Position numbers and translations under genes: made by a program
Shown here: piece after piece, positions 2,410 through 17,608 of the stretch
How positions within the stretch are numbered: position 1 is the first letter of the stretch
Layout of the letters: the number at the start of each line of letters is the position of its first letter
Source of the DNA: a virus
Lineage: Duplodnaviria > Heunggongvirae > Uroviricota > Caudoviricetes
IMG/VR virus record: IMGVR_UViG_2671180427_000010
Length of the DNA: 17,783 nucleotides
Direction: 5' to 3' (one strand)
The notes under the pieces: model-generated
What the model was told of the DNA's origin: nothing
The model's input: the letters and a program-made list of their open reading frames with translations, nothing else
Databases searched by the model: none

Positions 2410-2598
2410 TTATCCAGCCGGTGTTTCGTTATTCAGGTACAGCGATACTTTTTTTACCGGGAGGCATTCACCAGAAATTTTTTGCTCGTCTCTTGCCTGG
2501 AGGCAGGATTCTTTACTGGCATAAATTCTGGTAATCACATTCTGTGATTCACCCGTTATAAGAAAAACCGTCATCATCAGTGCAAATGCTGAAGTCAT
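2410..2598 (-). CDS. hypothetical small protein (62 aa) with hydrophobic N-terminus
   Basis: ORF track 62 aa. Start ATG at 2598 overlaps stop of upstream minus gene in an ATGA arrangement (2595-2598), suggesting translational coupling. N-terminus MTSAFALMMTVFLITG is hydrophobic. Confidence 0.45.
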   Translation of the reverse strand: MTSAFALMMTVFLITGESQNVITRIYASKESCLQARDEQKISGECLPVKKVSLYLNNETPAG

Positions 2599-2783
2599 TG
2601 ACGTTCTCCGAAAATACCAAGTTCAAGAAGAGCAATTCGGGAAAGTATGGAATTATCATTGAGCAGATAAGGCTCATATTTCCTCATATTAATGGCATCT
2701 TCAGTAAACTCCCGGTTACTGAGCAGAACACCAATATCAAAACAACCTTCAGACGTATTAACGTTTGGTAATAACGTTTCCAT
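2595..2783 (-). CDS. hypothetical small protein (62 aa; alternative longer start at 2888)
   Basis: Internal ATG at 2783 preceded by GAGGA with 7-nt spacer (revcomp of 2791-2795). Stop overlaps start of next gene. Same leftward operon as the RecE-like gene. Confidence 0.45.
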   Translation of the reverse strand: METLLPNVNTSEGCFDIGVLLSNREFTEDAINMRKYEPYLLNDNSILSRIALLELGIFGERQ

Positions 2784-3035
2784 TATCGCGTCCTCAACAA
2801 TGAATTTTGTGATGCGGTGCCTGGTGCCTCCAGGTGACGTTAACCAGTTAACAATTAACGCCGGATACAGAGAATCCACCCATAACACTGTTTTTGGTTT
2901 TAACTGTTCCGCGTGCGCTCAGCCGCATTCACCGCATCACAAAATTCACTTTAAAAACGGCGGCAGAGCAGTCACGGAGTAAAACTGATACCGCCAAACG
3001 TCACCAGAAAATTGATAACAGAGGGCGTTGCAGCG

Positions 3036-6913: not shown

Positions 6914-7188
6914 ATGGAGACTGTTTTTGACGCACTGAAAGCAATGGGAAAAGCCACATCCATAGAACTTGCTGCGCGCGTGAAGAAGTGCTGAACGAAC
7001 TATGGGAACTGAAAAAGGCTGGTTTTGTTGATAAAAGCGCGTACACCTGGCGTGTGGCTGATAACAACGTTCAGCAGGAACAGCCAGCGCAGGCAGAACT
7101 GCCGGAAGAAACCACCACAATGAGTGAAGTTATGCAGCGCATACTGGCATTTTATCAGGGAAATGTTCGATATTTTAGACGTTACTAG
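6914..7188 (+). pseudogene. small winged-helix protein gene apparently split by a 1-nt frameshift near 6988
   Basis: ATG 6914 with GGGAGGAAA upstream encodes [26 protein letters not shown] then stop at 6992. Continuation in another frame from 6988 ([23 protein letters not shown]) resembles the intact small gene at 16375. Confidence 0.35.
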
Positions 7189-7554
7189 ATTAAAGAGCAT
7201 TAGTTCAGATGTGAATTGACATTGTGTGGCACAGGGTTGGGCTAGCGTGGGGGTTTGCTTTGTGTAAGAAACGGATGCTCTGCAAATTACTACTAATGCT
7301 TAATGTTAGTCTGATCTGCTCCCCGATGATTAATACACCGCTATGTTAGTAATGTCTGTAGATCGCTGTGTGTTGCATCCATCGGTTGACCCCACAGTCC
7401 AAACCAGACTGTCAGCTTTGATTCGATTCTATCTACTCAACCTGTCAGGTAATGTCTGAGCTAATACACAGAGTACGGCTATCGCGAACTTTAAGCTAGG
7501 TATCTGATACGCACCGTTCACTTGTTTGTACTTCTTGCACTGACTAGCTATCGT

Positions 7555-7590
7555 GCGCAGTTATTTATAGGTAATCTCCAGTGTATAATT
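7555..7590 (+). promoter_or_regulatory. candidate promoter for the 281-aa gene (TATAAT -10 at 7584-7589)
   Basis: Consensus TATAAT at 7584-7589 with TG immediately upstream, about 40 nt before ATG 7628. The -35 is weak (TTATTT at 7561-7566). Confidence 0.35.
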
Positions 7591-7627
7591 TTCCAACTTA
7601 TGGGAGATTGTAAAACAGGAGGAATAT

Positions 7628-8473
7628 ATGAGGAAAAAATCGTTTGGACGTTGCCCGTTTGATTTCGACGAAGATGTAAAAAAAATAGCCGCGATAAATA
7701 AATATATCCATGCGAAATTTGAGAGGCATAAAAATAAAATAGATAACCTAAAGGGGGTGGAACAAAAATTGATGGTTTTACATTACTTTAATGTACTGAA
7801 TGAACTTAGTAATCAGGCTATATTTTCTTTGAGTACCGGAGCCTTTTCAGCATCGGAAGTATTAACTAGAGTTATAATGGAACAGGCTGCCAATCAATTT
7901 TATATAGCAATTGATGATGGAAAAAATGCACAAGCATTACTCAAGGGTAGTAAGAAATTAGTTCATAGTAATGGGAAACGGTGGCTGGAGTGTTTAAAAT
8001 CCAAAGAAATGACTAATCCAGCAGCAGATGAAAGGATTCGTATCGGAAAAGAGCTAACTGATATGTTTAATAGATTGTGGCCAAATACACCTGAATATCC
8101 TGGAACCAAAAAGCTTTTCGAAGTAATTGGCTGGGAAACACACTATCATGCCTATTACGTCCCTCTTTGTGATTCAATACATACATTCTCTGATGATATG
8201 GCAAATATAGTATCTCTATATAATGCAATCCAAAGCGATAAAACTACTGCTATCGAACTCACTCTTGCAGTTAAACAAGAAAATAAACGGCTGGCAATTT
8301 ATAATGTCGTAATTGCTATTGGCCTGCGGTGTGAGGCCTTAGTAAATGTATTTAACTCTTTAGGTTATCGAGATATTATAACTGAAATGGCGCCAACAAT
8401 AGATGCAGTCAACCAGATTATAATTCGATATGATGATTTCGAACATTCCAGAATTTTTATTGTCAATAATTAA
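7628..8473 (+). CDS. hypothetical protein (281 aa), AT-rich, no recognised domain; candidate accessory or defence gene
   Basis: ATG 7628 preceded by AGGAGG (7616-7621). ORF track 281 aa. No Walker, RT or nuclease motifs seen by eye; a C-terminal R-x5-H (RYDDFEH) is too weak to interpret. Confidence 0.75.
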   Translation: MRKKSFGRCPFDFDEDVKKIAAINKYIHAKFERHKNKIDNLKGVEQKLMVLHYFNVLNELSNQAIFSLSTGAFSASEVLTRVIMEQAANQFYIAIDDGKNAQALLKGSKKLVHSNGKRWLECLKSKEMTNPAADERIRIGKELTDMFNRLWPNTPEYPGTKKLFEVIGWETHYHAYYVPLCDSIHTFSDDMANIVSLYNAIQSDKTTAIELTLAVKQENKRLAIYNVVIAIGLRCEALVNVFNSLGYRDIITEMAPTIDAVNQIIIRYDDFEHSRIFIVNN

Positions 8474-8526
8474 TTGGCAGAATTCGTACATGCACAACAA
8501 CTAGTTATAGTTGACCTATTTCGCTC

Positions 8527-9095
8527 TTGAGAGACAACCATACTCAAATCTTCCACATTGCAGGAGATTTGAGTATGAATACGTCACCGAGGAACAAAGA
8601 CAGTATCATAGGCCCAAAAAGACCACTTCAGATATCTCATATCTGGGGGCTCCAAATCCGGCTTGAACTGGAAGGTAAAACGCGTGATTTAGCTCGGTTT
8701 CAAGCAGAGCTACGGTGCTGCAACTGAAAAACTGGCAGTCCTATCCAATTTGAGATAACCAAAGGGACAAGAGAAGCTGTTTCTGCATTGATAAAGCTTG
8801 GCAATTTACGCAGTAAAGACTACTTGTTCCGATCTCGGGTCGGTACTAACCAACACATATCAATCCTGCAATATAACCGAATCTTTCATAGGGGGGAGAA
8901 AAGCTTGGTCTCGAAGATTCGCTTTACAGCACACATTCCATGAGAAGAACAAAACCTTGCCTTGTCTGCAAGAAAACTAAGAATCTCCGGGTGATCCAAC
9001 TTCCGTTGGGCCATAAGAAAACGGAAAGCACAGTTCGTTATCTGGGTATAGAAGTTGATGATGCATTAGAGATCTCTGAATCGATCGAAGTCTAA
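8527..9095 (+). pseudogene. tyrosine recombinase (phage integrase) C-terminal fragment with in-frame stop and frameshifts
   Basis: Frame 1 reads GLQIRLELEGKTRDL, in-frame TGA at 8725-8727, then KTGSPIQFEITKGTREAV...DYLFRSRVG. A second frame has RRFALQHTFHEKNKT. A third frame (8940-9095) ends RVIQLPLGHKKTESTVRYLGIEV, matching the conserved integrase C-terminal LGH...T..Y motif. Confidence 0.55.
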
Positions 9096-9101
9096 AGCTG
9101 T

Positions 9102-9123
9102 CAGGGCTGCAGCAGCAGCCCTG
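9102..9123. other. perfect 9-bp stem hairpin (CAGGGCTGC-AGCA-GCAGCCCTG) just after the integrase fragment
   Basis: Exact inverted repeat with 4-nt loop; no U-tract on either strand, so not a typical intrinsic terminator. Confidence 0.4.
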
Positions 9124-9507
9124 TGCCAAGAGCGTACCAATATATGTCTCAAAAAATTGGGCACAGGTCAATATCAATACCAACAACTCTGATTGTGCTC
9201 ATGTGATTTACTCCTGTAGAAAACGCAGACAGTAAAAATATTTCACTGGCTGCTTCAGACAGGGCGTCCATCATATCATTACATAACAATAGCGGGGCAC
9301 GATATCTAGACATGCAGCAACGATGGACATAGAATGAGTACAATCAAAAGCATGTTTAACTACTTTAATTTAAAAATCTTAGAATCTTAGGTGTAGAGTT
9401 CAATACTTAGTTACATACCCTTTTGAAAGCATCACAAATCATAACTATGAGCCTGTTAAAGGCATAGGTATTCTTAATTAAGAGCATTTTAATGAGAGAA
9501 AAATAAA

Positions 9508-10881
9508 ATGAAAAGACTATATTATACCCATCATGATAGTCGAACCTTAAAACTTGCTATAGAAGGTGATGTTTCTGATAATGCGAATATTTTTACAGTA
9601 ATTGTAGGTAAAAATGGCGTTGGAAAAAGCAGATTGTTATCTCAGATTGCTAAAGACTGTATTCAAGATGTTCATTTCTTGAAAACTTTTAATCCATTAT
9701 TTGACAGAGAAATAACACCAAAGTTAATTGCCGTATCTACCAGCCCATTCGATAAATTCCCTCCAGGGCGTAGGTCATTAAATCACCAAAGGAAAGAAAA
9801 TAATTATCGCTATGTGGGTATGCGTGGAGAAGGCCCCTTCGGCGTATCAAATGCCGTATCCCTTTTATCTTCAGCAGCGAGAGGTTGGCTAGAGAAACTT
9901 GCTTATTCAGAAAATCCTGCAAATTTACTCGATGTTTTTCATTCTATTGATTTTGAGCCCCATATAGAGTTTGTATTTAAACCAACTTACAACGGACCGG
10001 ACACTCCTGACTATAACTTCATTGGTGTATATTCAGATGAGATATTAACGGAAGTTAAGGAGTTATATTTAAAATACAATATAAAAATTGACAGGAAGAA
10101 TATTGAGAGTCTCTTAAAGTTAAACTCCGAATCACGTCATGATATTTACGAAGCACTGGTTGAAATTAATCGATTTGAACCTGAACGTAGGGCTGTAACC
10201 TTGTCAGTCGATTTTACCAATGGTGAAACATTGGTTGGCTCGACTTATGCGAATAATTATTTTTCTAGATCAATTCTTAAACTTATGAACGCTGGCTTCA
10301 TGAGATTGATGGATATGCGACTCATAAAAAAAAGCTATGGTCCCATGTCACTTAAACGTGCGAGCTCGGGAGAACAATGTTTATTAGTGATGTTGCTTGG
10401 AATTGCAGGGCATATAACTGATGGTTCTATAATATTAATTGATGAACCGGAAATAAGCTTGCATCCTCGATGGCAGGAAGAGTTTATCATTATGTTAACA
10501 AAAGCATTTTTAACTTACTCAGGTTGTCAATTCATAATTGCAACTCATTCACCACAAATAATATCCAATTTGCCGAATAAAGGTTGTTATATAACATCTT
10601 TGTCGAAAAGTTATCTTTATAAAGCAAAATACTTTAGCAACCGGTCTGCAGACTATCAACTTGCGGAACTATTTGATGCCCCTGGCATTATGAATGAATA
10701 CATTGCCAGGTTAGCTTTCAATTTACTTTCAAAAGTTAAGACTGCTAAGTTAGTAACAGATGATAATTGGCGTGAATTAAAACAACTCCAACTTCTCCTT
10801 GAAAACGTTAATAGTAATGACCCTATTAATGAACTCGTAAATTCCGTATCTCAGGTGTGTGAAATTTATGCCAAAAATTAA
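9508..10881 (+). CDS. ptuA: ABC-type ATPase, Septu PtuA-like (457 aa)
   Basis: Walker A VGKNGVGKS, signature-like SSGEQ, Walker B IILIDEPE, H-loop IATHSP. AT-rich. Followed by an overlapping HNH nuclease gene, the Septu two-gene architecture. Confidence 0.7.
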   Translation: MKRLYYTHHDSRTLKLAIEGDVSDNANIFTVIVGKNGVGKSRLLSQIAKDCIQDVHFLKTFNPLFDREITPKLIAVSTSPFDKFPPGRRSLNHQRKENNYRYVGMRGEGPFGVSNAVSLLSSAARGWLEKLAYSENPANLLDVFHSIDFEPHIEFVFKPTYNGPDTPDYNFIGVYSDEILTEVKELYLKYNIKIDRKNIESLLKLNSESRHDIYEALVEINRFEPERRAVTLSVDFTNGETLVGSTYANNYFSRSILKLMNAGFMRLMDMRLIKKSYGPMSLKRASSGEQCLLVMLLGIAGHITDGSIILIDEPEISLHPRWQEEFIIMLTKAFLTYSGCQFIIATHSPQIISNLPNKGCYITSLSKSYLYKAKYFSNRSADYQLAELFDAPGIMNEYIARLAFNLLSKVKTAKLVTDDNWRELKQLQLLLENVNSNDPINELVNSVSQVCEIYAKN

Positions 10882-11503
10882 AAATCCAATTAGATTCAGC
10901 GCAGAGTCATTAGATATTATTGAGAAAAAATTGTCTTCTCCAGATTTTAAGCATACCAACTGGGGAGATGATGATTTGCAAGTTCTCCGTGCAGAAATTA
11001 GAAATCATTACAGAGAAGAACAAAAGCTAGAATGTGTATATTGTCATGAGCCTATTGGGGTAAGAGCTGCACAAGCTGCTCCTATAGAGCATATTGTGCC
11101 AAAATCTCAATATCTATGTTTTATTTTTGAACCTAAGAATCTATGTGTAGTATGTCCTGACTGCAATGAATTCAAAGGTAAAAATGAAGTGTTATTTGAA
11201 CCCGTAATAAATGGGGGGCGGCGCAAAAACTATCCAACTGCATCTGCATCATTTCGCATCGTTCATCCACATATAGATGATTATGAGATGCATATTATAA
11301 AAGCAAATCGTGTTTATGTGGACAAAACACCTAAAGGGCACTATACCATTGGAATATGTAAACTAAATAGATTTTTTCATTATTTTGGGATGTGTGATGA
11401 ATTTGTTAATGATGCAAAAATTGCTGAGGCAAATGAAAATTTTTTCAAAAAAGGTAGTATTACTACTAATGAATTATTGGATGATGACATTCATTTGATT
11501 TAA
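10868..11503 (+). CDS. ptuB: HNH endonuclease, Septu PtuB-like (211 aa)
   Basis: HNH motifs CVYCHEPIG, IEHIVPKS, CVVCPDCNEFKG. ATG 10868 overlaps ATPase gene end by 14 nt (ORF-track start 10859 is GTG). Confidence 0.7.
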   Translation: MPKIKNPIRFSAESLDIIEKKLSSPDFKHTNWGDDDLQVLRAEIRNHYREEQKLECVYCHEPIGVRAAQAAPIEHIVPKSQYLCFIFEPKNLCVVCPDCNEFKGKNEVLFEPVINGGRRKNYPTASASFRIVHPHIDDYEMHIIKANRVYVDKTPKGHYTIGICKLNRFFHYFGMCDEFVNDAKIAEANENFFKKGSITTNELLDDDIHLI

Positions 11504-11816
11504 CTATGAATTATTATATTGTAAAGTAATCAGGTAAGATATGTTAGACAGTGAGACTATTGCCTTACAGAATTCATTATTCTTATGGATCGCCTTTCTG
11601 ACTGATTTCATATTGGCGGGGTAACGGGAGTTAAGTAGAATGGCTGCGGGTGCTTGAGGCTATCTGTCTCAGGCATGAACACCAAAGGCAGATAGAGAAA
11701 AGCCCCAGTTAACATTACGCGTCCTGCAAGACGCTTAACATTAATCTGAGGCCAATTTCATGCTAGACACATGTAGGTTAGCCTCTTACGTGCCGGAAGG
11801 CAAGGAGAAGCAGGCT

Positions 11817-11972
11817 ATGAAGCAGCAAAAGGCGATGTTAATCGCCCTGATCGTCATCTGTTTAACCGTCATAGTGACGACACTGGTAACGAGGAAAGAC
11901 CTCTGCGAGGTACGAATCCGAACCGGCCAGACGGAGGTCGCTGTCTTCACAGCTTACGAACCTGAGGAGTAA
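11817..11972 (+). CDS. hokD: Hok/Gef-family type I toxin, HokD (RelF)-like, 51 aa
   Basis: Protein MKQQKAMLIALIVICLTVIVTTLVTRKDLCEVRIRTGQTEVAVFTAYEPEE matches the Hok family (TM helix, conserved C and Y). AAGGAG 8 nt upstream of ATG 11817. ORF-track start at 11760 is an in-frame extension. Confidence 0.8.
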   Translation: MKQQKAMLIALIVICLTVIVTTLVTRKDLCEVRIRTGQTEVAVFTAYEPEE

Positions 11973-14601: not shown

Positions 14602-14631
14602 TGACCATATACATTGTCCGGGGCTATATTC
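14602..14631 (+). promoter_or_regulatory. PR'-like late promoter (TTGACC, 18-bp spacer, TATATT)
   Basis: -35 TTGACC 14602-14607 and -10 TATATT 14626-14631, immediately downstream of the Q gene. Confidence 0.5.
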
Positions 14632-14692
14632 CTCGCGCGTCAGCAAAATCTGGCGTCGGGATTGGAACCCCGGATATTCAACCGCGACAGAC

Positions 14693-14717
14693 ACACGCCG
14701 CGAGCGTGTTTTTTATT
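14693..14717 (+). terminator. tR'-like intrinsic terminator (Q-antiterminated)
   Basis: Stem ACACGC/GCGTGT with CGCGA loop followed by TTTTTTATT, about 75 nt downstream of the PR'-like -10. Confidence 0.55.
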
Positions 14718-14878
14718 GTCGTAAGCACACGCACATCTGAATAATGGTGGGGCGTATGGGGGAGCTGAAAGGCTCGCCGGTTGGTTGATCCGGTAGTTCC
14801 AACCCTGTACGTCTCACCACCCAATGATTGGAACCTGACGGTGGTGATAGTTAAATCCATCAACCAGAGGGCGTTATC

Positions 14879-15439
14879 ATGACGACTCAAGTTTCTGTCG
14901 AAACTCTTTCCCCGATCACACACAACCAGCTCCCAGTTGTCACTACAGAGTTACTGGCCAAACTATATGGCTGTAGCGTCGAGTGTATTCATAGAAATCA
15001 CCACCGTAATAAAGAGCGATTTGCAGAAGGGAAGCACTACATAATTGCGAAAGGCGCAGACCTCCAAAATTTGAAAATCTCTTTAAGGGATTTTCAAACG
15101 ATCGCCCCAAATGTCCGAAAGCTCATACTCTGGACAGAACGCGGAGCAGCCCGTCACGCCAAAATGCTCGAAACCGATCAGGCGTGGGAAGTATTCGAAA
15201 AACTGGAAGACTGTTATTTCAACCAAAAACAACCACCAGCGGCACAAAACACATCTATCGAAAATGATGGATGCGCATTACTGATCCACTTCGATAAACA
15301 TGGTCAGGTTGAGTTCACGGAAAAGGTGCCCGCCGATGCGATGGTATGCACTCTGGAACGGTTTAAATTTTATCTGGAGCAACACGGGTGGATCGTTGCC
15401 CGTAAAGAGCAACTGGTGGAGCGGTTGATGCGGCTTTAA
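14879..15439 (+). CDS. ORF6N-domain protein (antirepressor-like), 186 aa
   Basis: AGAGGG upstream of ATG 14879. N-terminal region (LPVVTTELLAKLYGCSVECIHRNHHRNKERFAEGKHYII...RKLILWTERGAARHAKM) resembles the ORF6N/Rha-type domain by recollection. Confidence 0.55.
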   Translation: MTTQVSVETLSPITHNQLPVVTTELLAKLYGCSVECIHRNHHRNKERFAEGKHYIIAKGADLQNLKISLRDFQTIAPNVRKLILWTERGAARHAKMLETDQAWEVFEKLEDCYFNQKQPPAAQNTSIENDGCALLIHFDKHGQVEFTEKVPADAMVCTLERFKFYLEQHGWIVARKEQLVERLMRL

Positions 15440-15541: not shown

Positions 15542-16262
15542 TGCACAGAAAACCCCCAGCTAGGCTGGGGGTTCCGGAAAGCTTTCAGCTTTGAGCCAGT
15601 TATTAAAACCCCTTTTGATTTGTTAAAACACCTTGCGGTCTGGCAACTGCAAGTGTCAAACAAGAAATCAAAAGGGGGTCCCAATGGGGAACGAAAAGAG
15701 CTTAGCGCACACCCGATGGAACTGTAAATATCACATAGTATTTGCGCCAAAATACCGAAGACAGGTGTTCTACAGAGAGAAGCGTAGAGCAATAGGCTGT
15801 ATTTTGAGAAAGCTGTGTGAGTGGAAAAGTGTACGGATTCTGGAAGCTGAATGCTGTGCAGATCATATCCATATGCTTGTGGAGATCCCGCCCAAAATGA
15901 GCGTATCCGGCTTTATGGGATATCTGAAAGGGAAAAGCAGTCTGATGCTTTACGAGCAGTTTGGTGATTTGAAATTCAAGTACAGGAACAGGGAGTTCTG
16001 GTGCAGAGGGTATTACGTCGATACGGTGGGTAAGAACACGGCGAAGATACAGGATTACATAAAGCACCAGCTTGAAGAGGATAAAATGGGAGAGCAGTTA
16101 TCGATTCCCTATCCGGGCAGCCCGTTTACGGGCCGTAAGTAACGAAGTTGGATGCAAATGTCAGATCGTGTGCGCCTGTTAGGGCGCGGCTGGTAAGAGA
16201 GCCTTATAGGCGCATTTGAAAAACCTCCGGCTATGCCGGAGGATATTTATTGTGCCCGAAAA
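15532..16262 (+). mobile_element. IS200/IS605-family insertion sequence (IS200-like); boundaries approximate
   Basis: Contains Y1 transposase gene. Subterminal hairpins with 8-bp stem and 3-nt loop on both sides: CCCCCAGC-TAG-GCTGGGGG (15552-15570) and CCTCCGGC-TAT-GCCGGAGG (16234-16252). Ends estimated, not determined. Confidence 0.5.
15684..16142 (+). CDS. tnpA: IS200-type Y1 transposase TnpA (152 aa)
   Basis: MGNEKSLAHTRWNCKYHIVFAPKYRR...HIHMLVEIPPKMSVSGFMGYLKGKSS...NREFWCRGYYVDTVG has the HUH motif (HIHML) and catalytic Y region of IS200 TnpA. AAGGGGG upstream of ATG 15684. Confidence 0.85.
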   Translation: MGNEKSLAHTRWNCKYHIVFAPKYRRQVFYREKRRAIGCILRKLCEWKSVRILEAECCADHIHMLVEIPPKMSVSGFMGYLKGKSSLMLYEQFGDLKFKYRNREFWCRGYYVDTVGKNTAKIQDYIKHQLEEDKMGEQLSIPYPGSPFTGRK

Positions 16263-17448: not shown

Positions 17449-17524
17449 GGCCTTTTAGCTCAGTGGTGAGAGCGAGCGACTCATAATCGCCAGGTCGCTG
17501 GTTCAAATCCAGCAAGGGCCACCA
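17449..17524 (+). tRNA. tRNA-Ile2-like, anticodon CAU (lysidine type; could be Met by anticodon alone)
   Basis: Hand-folded cloverleaf: acceptor GGCCTTT/AAGGGCC, D-arm GCTC-AGTGGTGA-GAGC, anticodon loop CTCATAA, T-arm GCTGG-TTCAAAT-CCAGC, discriminator A, CCA. Resembles recalled E. coli ileX. Confidence 0.75.
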
Positions 17525-17531
17525 TCACATA

Positions 17532-17608
17532 CCGCCATTAGCTCATCAGGAAAGAGCGCCAGCTTTCGAAGCTGGTTGCGCGGAGTTCGGGTCCCCGAAG
17601 GCGGTCCA
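17532..17608 (+). tRNA. tRNA-Arg-like, anticodon UCG, with non-canonical T-arm (possibly degenerate)
   Basis: Acceptor CCGCCAT/AAGGCGG (one mismatch), D-arm GCTC/GAGC, perfect anticodon stem CCAGC/GCTGG with loop TTTCGAA, T-arm CGGAG-TTCGGGT-CCCCG (one mismatch, G at position 58), CCA. Confidence 0.5.

Follow-up and report, generated by a model that had tools for sequence, protein, structure and literature searches.

The ptuA-ptuB gene pair at 9508-11503 of the window, a stretch of 17,783 nucleotides of tailed-phage DNA, is very probably a stand-alone type I Septu defense system: a 'moron' cassette, probably transcribed from its own promoter, that an Escherichia coli prophage of the Rac/Qin lambdoid type carries as cargo. 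The identities of both proteins (by sequence and by fold), their catalytic motifs, the conservation of the pair and purifying selection on it are directly supported, as are the lack of any retron component and the setting, a mobile cassette within a prophage. For the prophage PtuAB, that the two proteins form a complex, that ATP controls it, what triggers it, what it cuts and that it protects against phages are inferred by analogy with characterised relatives. Septu type I consists of PtuA plus PtuB (Doron 2018; septu_type_I in PADLOC). The features of the locus are as follows.

7099..11575, no strand assigned: variable cargo slot of low GC content (33-43%) between replication gene P and hokD/sok
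9145..9507, plus strand: upstream non-coding leader that moves with the cassette
9307-9335, plus strand: sigma-70-like promoter candidate, TAGACA-17-TAGAAT, from a consensus scan
9508..10881, plus strand: ptuA, ATG start, 457 aa, ABC/SMC-type ATPase, predicted Septu sensor and regulator subunit
10868..10881, plus strand: overlap of the ptuA stop and ptuB start, 14 nt, ATGCCAAAAATTAA
10868..11503, plus strand: ptuB, ATG start, 211 aa, HNH nuclease, predicted Septu effector subunit
11504..11574, plus strand: cassette 3' tail, ending at the junction with the prophage backbone

Protein families, motifs and folds

PtuA matches the PADLOC profile PDLC00283 almost from end to end (E=1.2e-165, 550 bits; residues 2-455 against positions 3-447 of 448), and PtuB matches PDLC00325 over residues 4-209 (E=1.1e-83). 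In Pfam, AAA_21 (74.3 bits) and AAA_15 (61.6 bits) both exceed their gathering cut-offs on PtuA, and HNH scores 24.0 bits on PtuB against a cut-off of 21.4. The profile searches suggested with the initial annotation, covering PtuA/PtuB, AAA_21/AAA_15 and HNH, were thus significant throughout. That annotation had described a 457-aa protein with four ATPase motifs and an overlapping 211-aa protein with a full HNH motif set, and all the motifs that it quoted are present. In PtuA these are Walker A (G34-S41, with lysine K40), the ABC signature SSGEQ (residues 286-290, the Gln being Q290), the Walker B/D-loop segment LIDEPE (310-315, including D312/E313) and the H-loop ATHSP (345-349, including H347). 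G34-S41 with K40, SSGEQ, D312/E313 and H347 are invariant in an alignment of 52 homologues.

PtuB contains CVYCH (56-60), IEHIVPKS (73-80, with H75), N91 and CPDCN (96-100). The CxxC...CxxC zinc-site cysteines C56, C59, C96 and C99 and the catalytic residues H75 and N91 are invariant in a 52-sequence alignment, in which N100 is at least 90% conserved. Overall, the motif residues of both proteins are fully or almost fully invariant in these alignments. Twelve further residues outside the HNH core are also invariant: W32, R41, R45, Y122, P123, F129, H133, P134, D137, C164, N167 and R168. The list of open reading frames offers an alternative start in the ptuB frame, a GTG at 10859 that would give 214 aa; the ATG at 10868 is the RefSeq start and corresponds to a start methionine, M1, that is invariant among 51 homologues.

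The AlphaFold2 model of PtuA has a pLDDT of 82. In a Foldseek search its best 40 PDB matches were all PtuA chains, including 8eea and 8ee4, with E-values down to 9.9e-10 and a probability of 1.0, but with TM-scores of only about 0.3, which may reflect the orientation of the domains. The modelled PtuB fold, including its non-HNH parts, matches solved PtuB structures. Three C-terminal helices were modelled in each protein, at 392-413, 418-433 and 439-456 in PtuA and at 155-163, 168-173 and 182-195 in PtuB. Single sequences were insufficient to find these structural relatives, and profile and fold searches were needed: against the PDB, the PtuA sequence matched only in the Walker B/signature segment and the PtuB sequence gave no match at E<=0.001, while subfamily profiles recovered both PtuA and PtuB chains.

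Organisation of the pair and its prophage setting

The 14-nt overlap, noted from the start, is read directly from the sequence, and AGGTG lies 10 nt upstream of the ptuB ATG. The initial annotation took the overlap to imply co-translation; the overlap itself stands, and the arrangement is better described as probable translational coupling of ptuA and ptuB. The same co-directional, overlapping ptuA-ptuB order recurs in loci L004-L013, which come from four other taxa and from unrelated genomic settings (K. variicola, Dickeya, Pseudomonas aeruginosa and one metagenome contig). The overlap is again 14 nt in L008, L010 and L012, and 17 nt in P. aeruginosa. Neighbours of these other pairs include integrases, Mrr or VspR genes, a GASH/DO-GTPase system and phage genes, and across the orthologous contexts compared no constant third gene lies beside ptuAB. 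Relative to three orthologous loci, dN/dS of ptuA and ptuB is 0.13-0.22, which indicates purifying selection. Chance open reading frames are excluded, since intact frames of 1.37 and 0.63 kb occur here in stop-rich DNA of 33-36% GC.

Nucleotide homology places the cassette borders at 9145-11574. At the closest orthologous locus (L012), homology of 89% begins at 9145 and stops at 11574; for the K. variicola locus (L010) the start is 9301, and homology to lambdoid phages lacking the cassette restarts at 11576. L012 and L010 both retain the promoter candidate of the window; as the consensus scan overall was not enriched over shuffled sequences, a promoter function is only inferred for it. A scan downstream of ptuB gave no convincing terminator, and a repeat search over 7000-11700 returned only short, chance-like matches.

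Around the cargo slot, homology to reference phages stops at 7098 and restarts at 11576 or 11621. In the RefSeq annotation of an identical locus, the slot contains, in addition to ptuAB, a DUF5677 gene, an integrase in decay and remnants of genes. The DUF5677 gene was considered as a third Septu component and rejected: it is absent from every other PtuAB context, it is separated from ptuA by the decayed integrase while cassette homology begins only at 9145, and it has no PADLOC match. In related phages the same slot is occupied by the virulence gene paa/adfO.

Of 5426 complete E. coli genomes, 19 contain the whole cargo block, among them the EPEC reference strain E2348/69, and in the 15 of these carriers that are listed both open reading frames are unbroken, with 99.8-100% conservation. 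The sole notable match to the cassette among the sequenced phages searched was a partial one (39%) in a Vibrio phage. One E. coli plasmid record carries the cassette, and distant full-length homologues occur on plasmids of Xanthomonas, Pseudomonas and Bacillus thuringiensis. Literature searches on the protein accession and on Septu together with lambdoid prophages found no description of this instance.

Relation to known systems and competing readings

The prophage PtuA and PtuB share about 12-18% identity with every PtuA and PtuB that has been solved or functionally tested. The stand-alone Septu of ATCC 25922, with structures 8EE4, 8EE7, 8EEA and 8SUX (Li et al. 2024, as cited in PMC12640716 and PMC12819146), is likewise a two-gene ptuA-ptuB system without a reverse transcriptase. 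Its PtuA has 465 aa compared with 457 here, with Walker A also near residue 40, and PtuA C-terminal helices and a helical PtuB C-terminal domain would suit the same interface in both. It differs in genomic context, ptuAB here being prophage cargo, and the two PtuA sequences match only at the Walker B region (E 3.2e-07). The ATCC 25922 PtuA is reported to carry Leu in place of the signature-motif Gln and to lack ATPase activity (PMC12819146), whereas the prophage protein has an invariant SSGEQ with Q290. Because of this invariant Gln, ATP handling in the prophage lineage may depart from the ATCC 25922 model.

A second stand-alone type I Septu of E. coli, that of EcB88 and Wu et al. [quoted passage not shown] Its PtuB catalytic residues are also numbered H75 and N91, and identity with the prophage system was suspected on that account and then rejected. 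The shared numbering is a coincidence: the PtuA of that system has 452 aa with K43 and D316, as against K40 and D312 here, and its PtuB has 219 aa and begins MREITKG rather than MPKIKNP. The initial annotation allowed for a distinct subtype. This is weakly right, in that the lineage differs from those of ATCC 25922, EcB88 and Wu et al., but the pair falls well inside the existing PADLOC Septu type I profiles (PDLC00283 and PDLC00325).

The closest structural relatives numerically are retron-associated PtuA and PtuB chains, and the NCBIfam models for retron Ec78 PtuA and PtuB rank top, though weakly. ptuAB could on these grounds belong to a type I-A retron ('type II Septu') as its effector half, the reverse transcriptase and ncRNA having been lost or lying elsewhere, which would leave the pair constitutively toxic or inactive. 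Retron I-A effectors (Retron-Eco7/Ec78 and Eco4/Ec83; PDB 9kjx, 9n69, 9e8z and others) do have homologous PtuA and PtuB folds and keep the signature-motif Gln, but their PtuAs are longer (540-552 aa), with an N-terminal extension, msDNA-binding inserts and control by RT-msDNA. In Eco7 PtuA this extension moves the end of the Walker A block to near residue 103 (supplementary alignment of PMC13096335); the prophage PtuA has no such extension and, like stand-alone PtuAs, has its Walker A lysine at residue 40. The NCBIfam retron equivalogs NF041760 and NF041761 score far below their cut-offs (65.8 bits against 500 for PtuA and 30.6 against 150 for PtuB), and only partial matches came from the PADLOC models for retron I-A (ATPase_I-A at 2.1e-20 over residues 307-364, HNH_I-A at 3.6e-08). 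A reverse transcriptase is neither annotated in the RefSeq record of the identical locus nor present in any of five orthologous ptuAB contexts. Rfam gave no retron match in the window at the gathering threshold, no relevant match at E<=1 over 8400-9560 and no family match in the leader at 9145..9507. A retron origin is accordingly highly improbable, and the initial annotation, which had reported neither a reverse transcriptase nor a structured RNA upstream and had favoured stand-alone Septu, is borne out by the full-length PADLOC profiles, the fold matches, the conserved pair, the missing retron parts and the position of K40.

Another ABC-ATPase/nuclease defense system, whether PARIS-like with AriA, OLD/Gabija-like or the PADLOC candidate PDC-M01, is a very unlikely identity for the pair. 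AriA is the best PDB sequence match of the ATPase core (1.6e-12 with the single sequence, 7.5e-17 with a profile), for which the PARIS protein AriA scores slightly above the solved PtuAs by sequence, and the PDC-M01A/B and AriA models give significant partial matches. PARIS AriA (PDB 8ux9, 8v45) is also an ABC ATPase controlling a nuclease effector, with a signature/Walker B/H-loop segment closely similar to that of PtuA. These matches are nevertheless confined to about 270-365, the signature-to-H-loop region common to such ATPases, where the PtuA profile spans 2-455. AriA PADLOC profiles reach only about 225-354 and PDB AriA only 279-354, the likeness covering about 75 residues. PtuA chains rank above AriA in the fold search, and the partner here is an HNH protein with a complete PtuB fold rather than the Toprim/DUF4435 protein AriB.

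Phage HNH proteins frequently have roles in homing or packaging, and ptuAB lies directly upstream of the post-segregational killer hokD/sok. PtuAB of Retron-Eco7, moreover, proves toxic if it is expressed in the absence of the antitoxin (PMC12640716). These observations would fit a selfish module that stabilises the prophage or the cassette by addiction, or else phage HNH machinery for homing or packaging, but either reading is very improbable. The pair also occurs in non-phage defense islands, beside Mrr, VspR and a helicase (L012) or beside a GASH/DO-GTPase system (L008). It occupies an early-region cargo slot away from the terminase, the PtuB fold is far larger than a bare homing HNH, and the stand-alone Septu systems already assayed give protection against phages. 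Decay of the cassette to a non-functional passenger of a degraded island is suggested by its rarity in complete genomes and by pseudogene neighbours (an integrase at 8575-9095, disrupted by a frameshift, and truncated remnants of DUF1627/DUF977 genes). Set against this are two intact open reading frames with all catalytic residues, the low dN/dS values and the conserved start overlap and promoter-like site, so that decay is likewise highly improbable.

Proposed action and significance

For the preferred reading, a stand-alone type I Septu, a mode of action can be proposed from its relatives. Activities reported for these are ATP-inhibited DNA cleavage by a 6:2 complex, ssDNA cleavage and tRNA-Tyr cleavage (PMC12640716); the DNA activity among relatives is nicking, and the tRNA-Tyr cut lies in the variable loop. 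By analogy, PtuA dimers would oligomerise, and the oligomer, in a 6:2 or 4:2 complex, would clamp PtuB through a helical bundle to which every PtuA contributes its three C-terminal helices and PtuB its own C-terminal helices. A nine-helix PtuA2:PtuB bundle has been described (PMC12819146), and the three C-terminal helices in each prophage monomer model fit that description. In an uninfected, ATP-replete cell the PtuB nuclease would be kept inactive. A phage cue, for which a phage structural protein and nucleotide depletion are candidates, would lift the inhibition, and the freed PtuB would then cleave nucleic acid. The outcome would be abortive infection, in which phage replication is halted at the expense of host growth and the lysogen population, and hence the prophage, is protected.

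A more specific proposal is put forward tentatively and is rather doubtful: the prophage lineage would be an ATP-hydrolysing Septu with a substrate or trigger other than those reported, set by the invariant non-HNH residues of PtuB, and might be adjusted so that the lambdoid phage carrying it is not harmed on induction. ATP hydrolysis is conceivable because the signature Gln, missing from the ATPase-dead PtuA of ATCC 25922, is kept.

The conceptual gain is small, as PADLOC-type tools already assign the pair to Septu type I. The pair is of modest practical use, as a rare E. coli Septu lineage whose carriage by E2348/69 allows study in a native host. The cargo slot illustrates the swapping of defense and virulence cargo at one phage locus. 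The kept signature Gln could help to decide whether ATP hydrolysis or binding alone controls stand-alone Septu, and which reported substrate came first in evolution.

The ptuAB gene pair and its products

The 457-aa and 211-aa reading frames described in the initial annotation, with an overlap of 14 nt, were found at their coordinates, and all motifs quoted for both proteins are present in the translated sequences.

Features of the ptuAB locus and its island
9508-10881 (+): ptuA, 457 codons in the ORF list
10868-11503 (+): ptuB, in another frame than ptuA, 211 aa from ATG 10868
7628-8473 (+): DUF5677 gene of the island, 281 aa
8575-9095 (+): frameshifted integrase (tyrosine recombinase remnant) of the island

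The mechanical ORF list placed the ptuB start at GTG 10859. The ATG at 10868 is the start used in RefSeq at the identical locus, lines up with a Met that is invariant across 51 homologues and is preceded by AGGTG 10 nt upstream; with this start the ptuA/ptuB overlap is therefore 14 nt (ATGCCAAAAATTAA). The motifs of PtuA are Walker A (G34-S41, including K40), SSGEQ (286-290), LIDEPE (310-315, with D312 and E313) and ATHSP (345-349, with H347), and those of PtuB are C56xxC59, H75, N91 and C96xxC99-N100. The G+C content of the ptuAB region is 33-36%, versus about 45-58% in the rest of the window, and long open frames in DNA this AT-rich would not be expected to arise by chance. Outside the HNH core, W32, R41, R45, Q52, Y122, P123, F129, H133, P134, D137, G157, C164, L166, N167 and R168 of PtuB are invariant among 52 homologues; these residues could provide another functional surface, to bind either the substrate or PtuA.

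The AAA15/AAA21, HNH and PtuA/PtuB profiles suggested for HMM searches were all matched, the last at full length. PtuA matched PADLOC model PDLC00283 (E=1.2e-165, residues 2-455) and PtuB matched PDLC00325 (E=1.1e-83, residues 4-209), both end to end, with dozens more PADLOC PtuA and PtuB models below them. Pfam gathering scores were exceeded by AAA_21 and AAA_15 in PtuA and by HNH in PtuB. The NCBIfam retron-type PtuA and PtuB equivalogs gave weak matches, far under their cut-offs. In single-sequence searches of PDB sequences PtuB had no match, and PtuA was matched only in its signature-to-H-loop stretch (AriA, the ATPase of PARIS, 1.6e-12; retron PtuAs, near 1e-9 to 1e-10; ATCC 25922 PtuA, 3.2e-07); the lineage is therefore distant from all solved structures. 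With subfamily profiles, in contrast, sequence searches of the PDB do recover chains of both PtuB and PtuA.

Homologues were collected for each protein, 52-sequence alignments were made, and structures of both were predicted (pLDDT 80.1 for PtuB and 82.2 for PtuA). The first 40 Foldseek matches of the PtuA model were PtuA chains (retron I-A, Ec83, Eco7, and E. coli Septu 8eea and 8ee4), followed by AriA; TM-scores were low, about 0.3. Three C-terminal helices are predicted in each protein, which would fit the interface of the nine-helix bundle in which pairs of PtuA C-terminal extensions clamp PtuB (PMC12819146).

Stand-alone organization and proposed mechanism

The gene order and the overlapping start are kept in orthologous pairs from several unrelated settings.

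Orthologous ptuAB pairs and their neighbours
Pseudomonas aeruginosa, L004-L007: integrases, kinase
Dickeya dadantii, L008: GASH/DO-GTPase/GAP1 system, DUF4238 gene
Klebsiella variicola, L010: phage tail and lysozyme genes
Metagenome contig, L012: Mrr; VspR plus helicase

Neither a reverse transcriptase nor a constant third gene adjoins the pair in these contexts. No reverse transcriptase is annotated in the window (RefSeq, identical locus), and in the Rfam search neither a retron msr nor another family matched 5' of ptuA, in agreement with the initial annotation. The Walker A lysine is residue 40, near which it typically lies in stand-alone PtuAs, whereas retron PtuAs carry an N-terminal extension. 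The conserved pair without a reverse transcriptase, the lack of an msr and the K40 position together support the earlier interpretation as stand-alone Septu. In D. dadantii (L008, 1-5895) the pair is 70% identical and lies directly 3' of a GASH, DO-GTPase2, DO-GTPase1 and GAP1-N1 set and the DUF4238 gene; this region is a dense conflict-system island.

Both ptuA and ptuB have dN/dS values of 0.13-0.22 (versus L012, L010 and L008). An orphaned retron effector, a PARIS-, OLD-like or PDC-M01 system, a selfish or phage-biology role and a decaying passenger are improbable even when taken together, each of the four being contradicted by specific results.

Among studied systems, Retron-Eco4 PtuAB cleaves ssDNA and Retron-Eco7 PtuAB depletes tRNA-Tyr (PMC12640716). 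Upon T6 infection, Septu EcB88 cleaves tRNA-Tyr in its variable loop, and the system requires its Walker A/B and HNH residues (PMC13096335). PMC12819146 describes the ATCC 25922 PtuA as ATPase-inactive, with Leu replacing the signature Gln; in contrast, the Gln is invariant here (Q290), which makes ATP hydrolysis plausible. As a stand-alone Septu, a PtuA oligomer under ATP control would restrain PtuB, a phage cue would release the nuclease activity of PtuB, and this activity would abort the infection; complex formation, trigger and substrate are inferred.

The prophage and its cargo slot

The window belongs to a Rac/Qin-type lambdoid phage with the gene order int, exo, dicB/DicF, cI-like, cro, ydaT, O-like, P, island, hokD/sok, rem, DUF968, rusA, Q, tRNAs and lysis genes. 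Homology to related phages ends at 7098 and returns at 11576. The slot between holds gene remnants, the DUF5677 gene, the frameshifted integrase and ptuAB here, paa/adfO in PPompW phages and other small genes in phage HannyBb, and is therefore a cargo hotspot. In the related lambdoid phages of the PPompW and Stx2a-associated kinds, the virulence gene paa/adfO (PPompW_132418, L002 9684-10430) takes this slot, between P and hok/gef, instead of Septu.

Of 5426 complete E. coli genomes, 19 contain the entire island block. L012, the closest locus outside E. coli, has nucleotide homology (89%) to the window over exactly 9145-11574; the mobile unit therefore comprises ptuAB, a leader of about 360 nt and a tail of about 70 nt, its right end falling on the junction with the backbone. 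The window, L012 and L010 share a conserved TAGACA-17-TAGAAT site (9307-9335), which would accord with autonomous expression from the prophage.

The DUF5677 protein of this low-GC island (Pfam 3.4e-09; phrog_4167 1.3e-175) matched nothing in PADLOC or NCBIfam. Its gene accompanies ptuAB in each of the 19 E. coli genomes, is absent from other PtuAB contexts and may be independent prophage cargo; a preprint (10.1101/2025.10.07.681051) reports DUF5677 as enriched near serine recombinases and does not include the DUF5677 ORF among those conferring defence. The integrase remnant lies just 5' of the cassette border at 9145 and shares about 90% identity with intact site-specific integrases (E. coli Nissle, clone D i14 and others), a hint that an integrative element brought in some of the island.

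Directly 3' of the cassette is the hokD/sok type I toxin-antitoxin (11648-11972, +; Rfam sok 11648-11822, 117 bits; hokD CDS 11817-11972). An 8,461-bp circular 'plasmid' record (L014, NZ_CP148379.1, 1-8461) holds the prophage segment alone (cI-like, cro, ydaT, O-like, P, DUF5677, pseudo-integrase, ptuAB, hokD, rem), and is either a lambda-dv-like autonomous replicon with Septu and hok/sok or an assembly artefact. In strain E2348/69 (L015, NC_011601.1 1258914-1301314) the lambdoid prophage that carries the island adjoins potC and has another integrase, and an IS481-family transposase is inserted between ptuB and hokD.

Elsewhere in the window, dicB and the DicF sRNA (Rfam 72.5 bits, 2958-3009) occupy 2595-3009 (-), as in the Qin prophage. 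Just 3' of Q, Rfam matches on the + strand to c4-a1b1 (14624-14676), isrK (14637-14714) and C4 antisense RNA (14740-14824) make up an antisense control element of the P1/P7 or Gifsy type beside an ORF6N gene (14879-15439). The late regulatory region carries an inserted IS200C element (15551-16142, +; tnpA 15684-16142) with an STnc490 Rfam match (15551-15674, 146 bits). The tRNA cluster (17449-17608, +) comprises a CAU anticodon (annotated Ile) followed by Arg-UCG, and the RefSeq locus has one more Arg tRNA as the third; tRNA-Tyr is absent, and thus no tRNA-based connection to the Septu relatives that cleave tRNA-Tyr is obvious.

Placement of the lineage

RefSeq names the pair only 'AAA family ATPase' and 'HNH endonuclease', and a literature search found no paper describing this ptuAB instance. 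Because Septu type I profiles already match it at full length, a routine screen of the PADLOC kind can be expected to flag it. The pair is a distinct, rare lineage, about 15% identical to studied ones, and lies at a phage locus where defence cargo and virulence cargo take turns.
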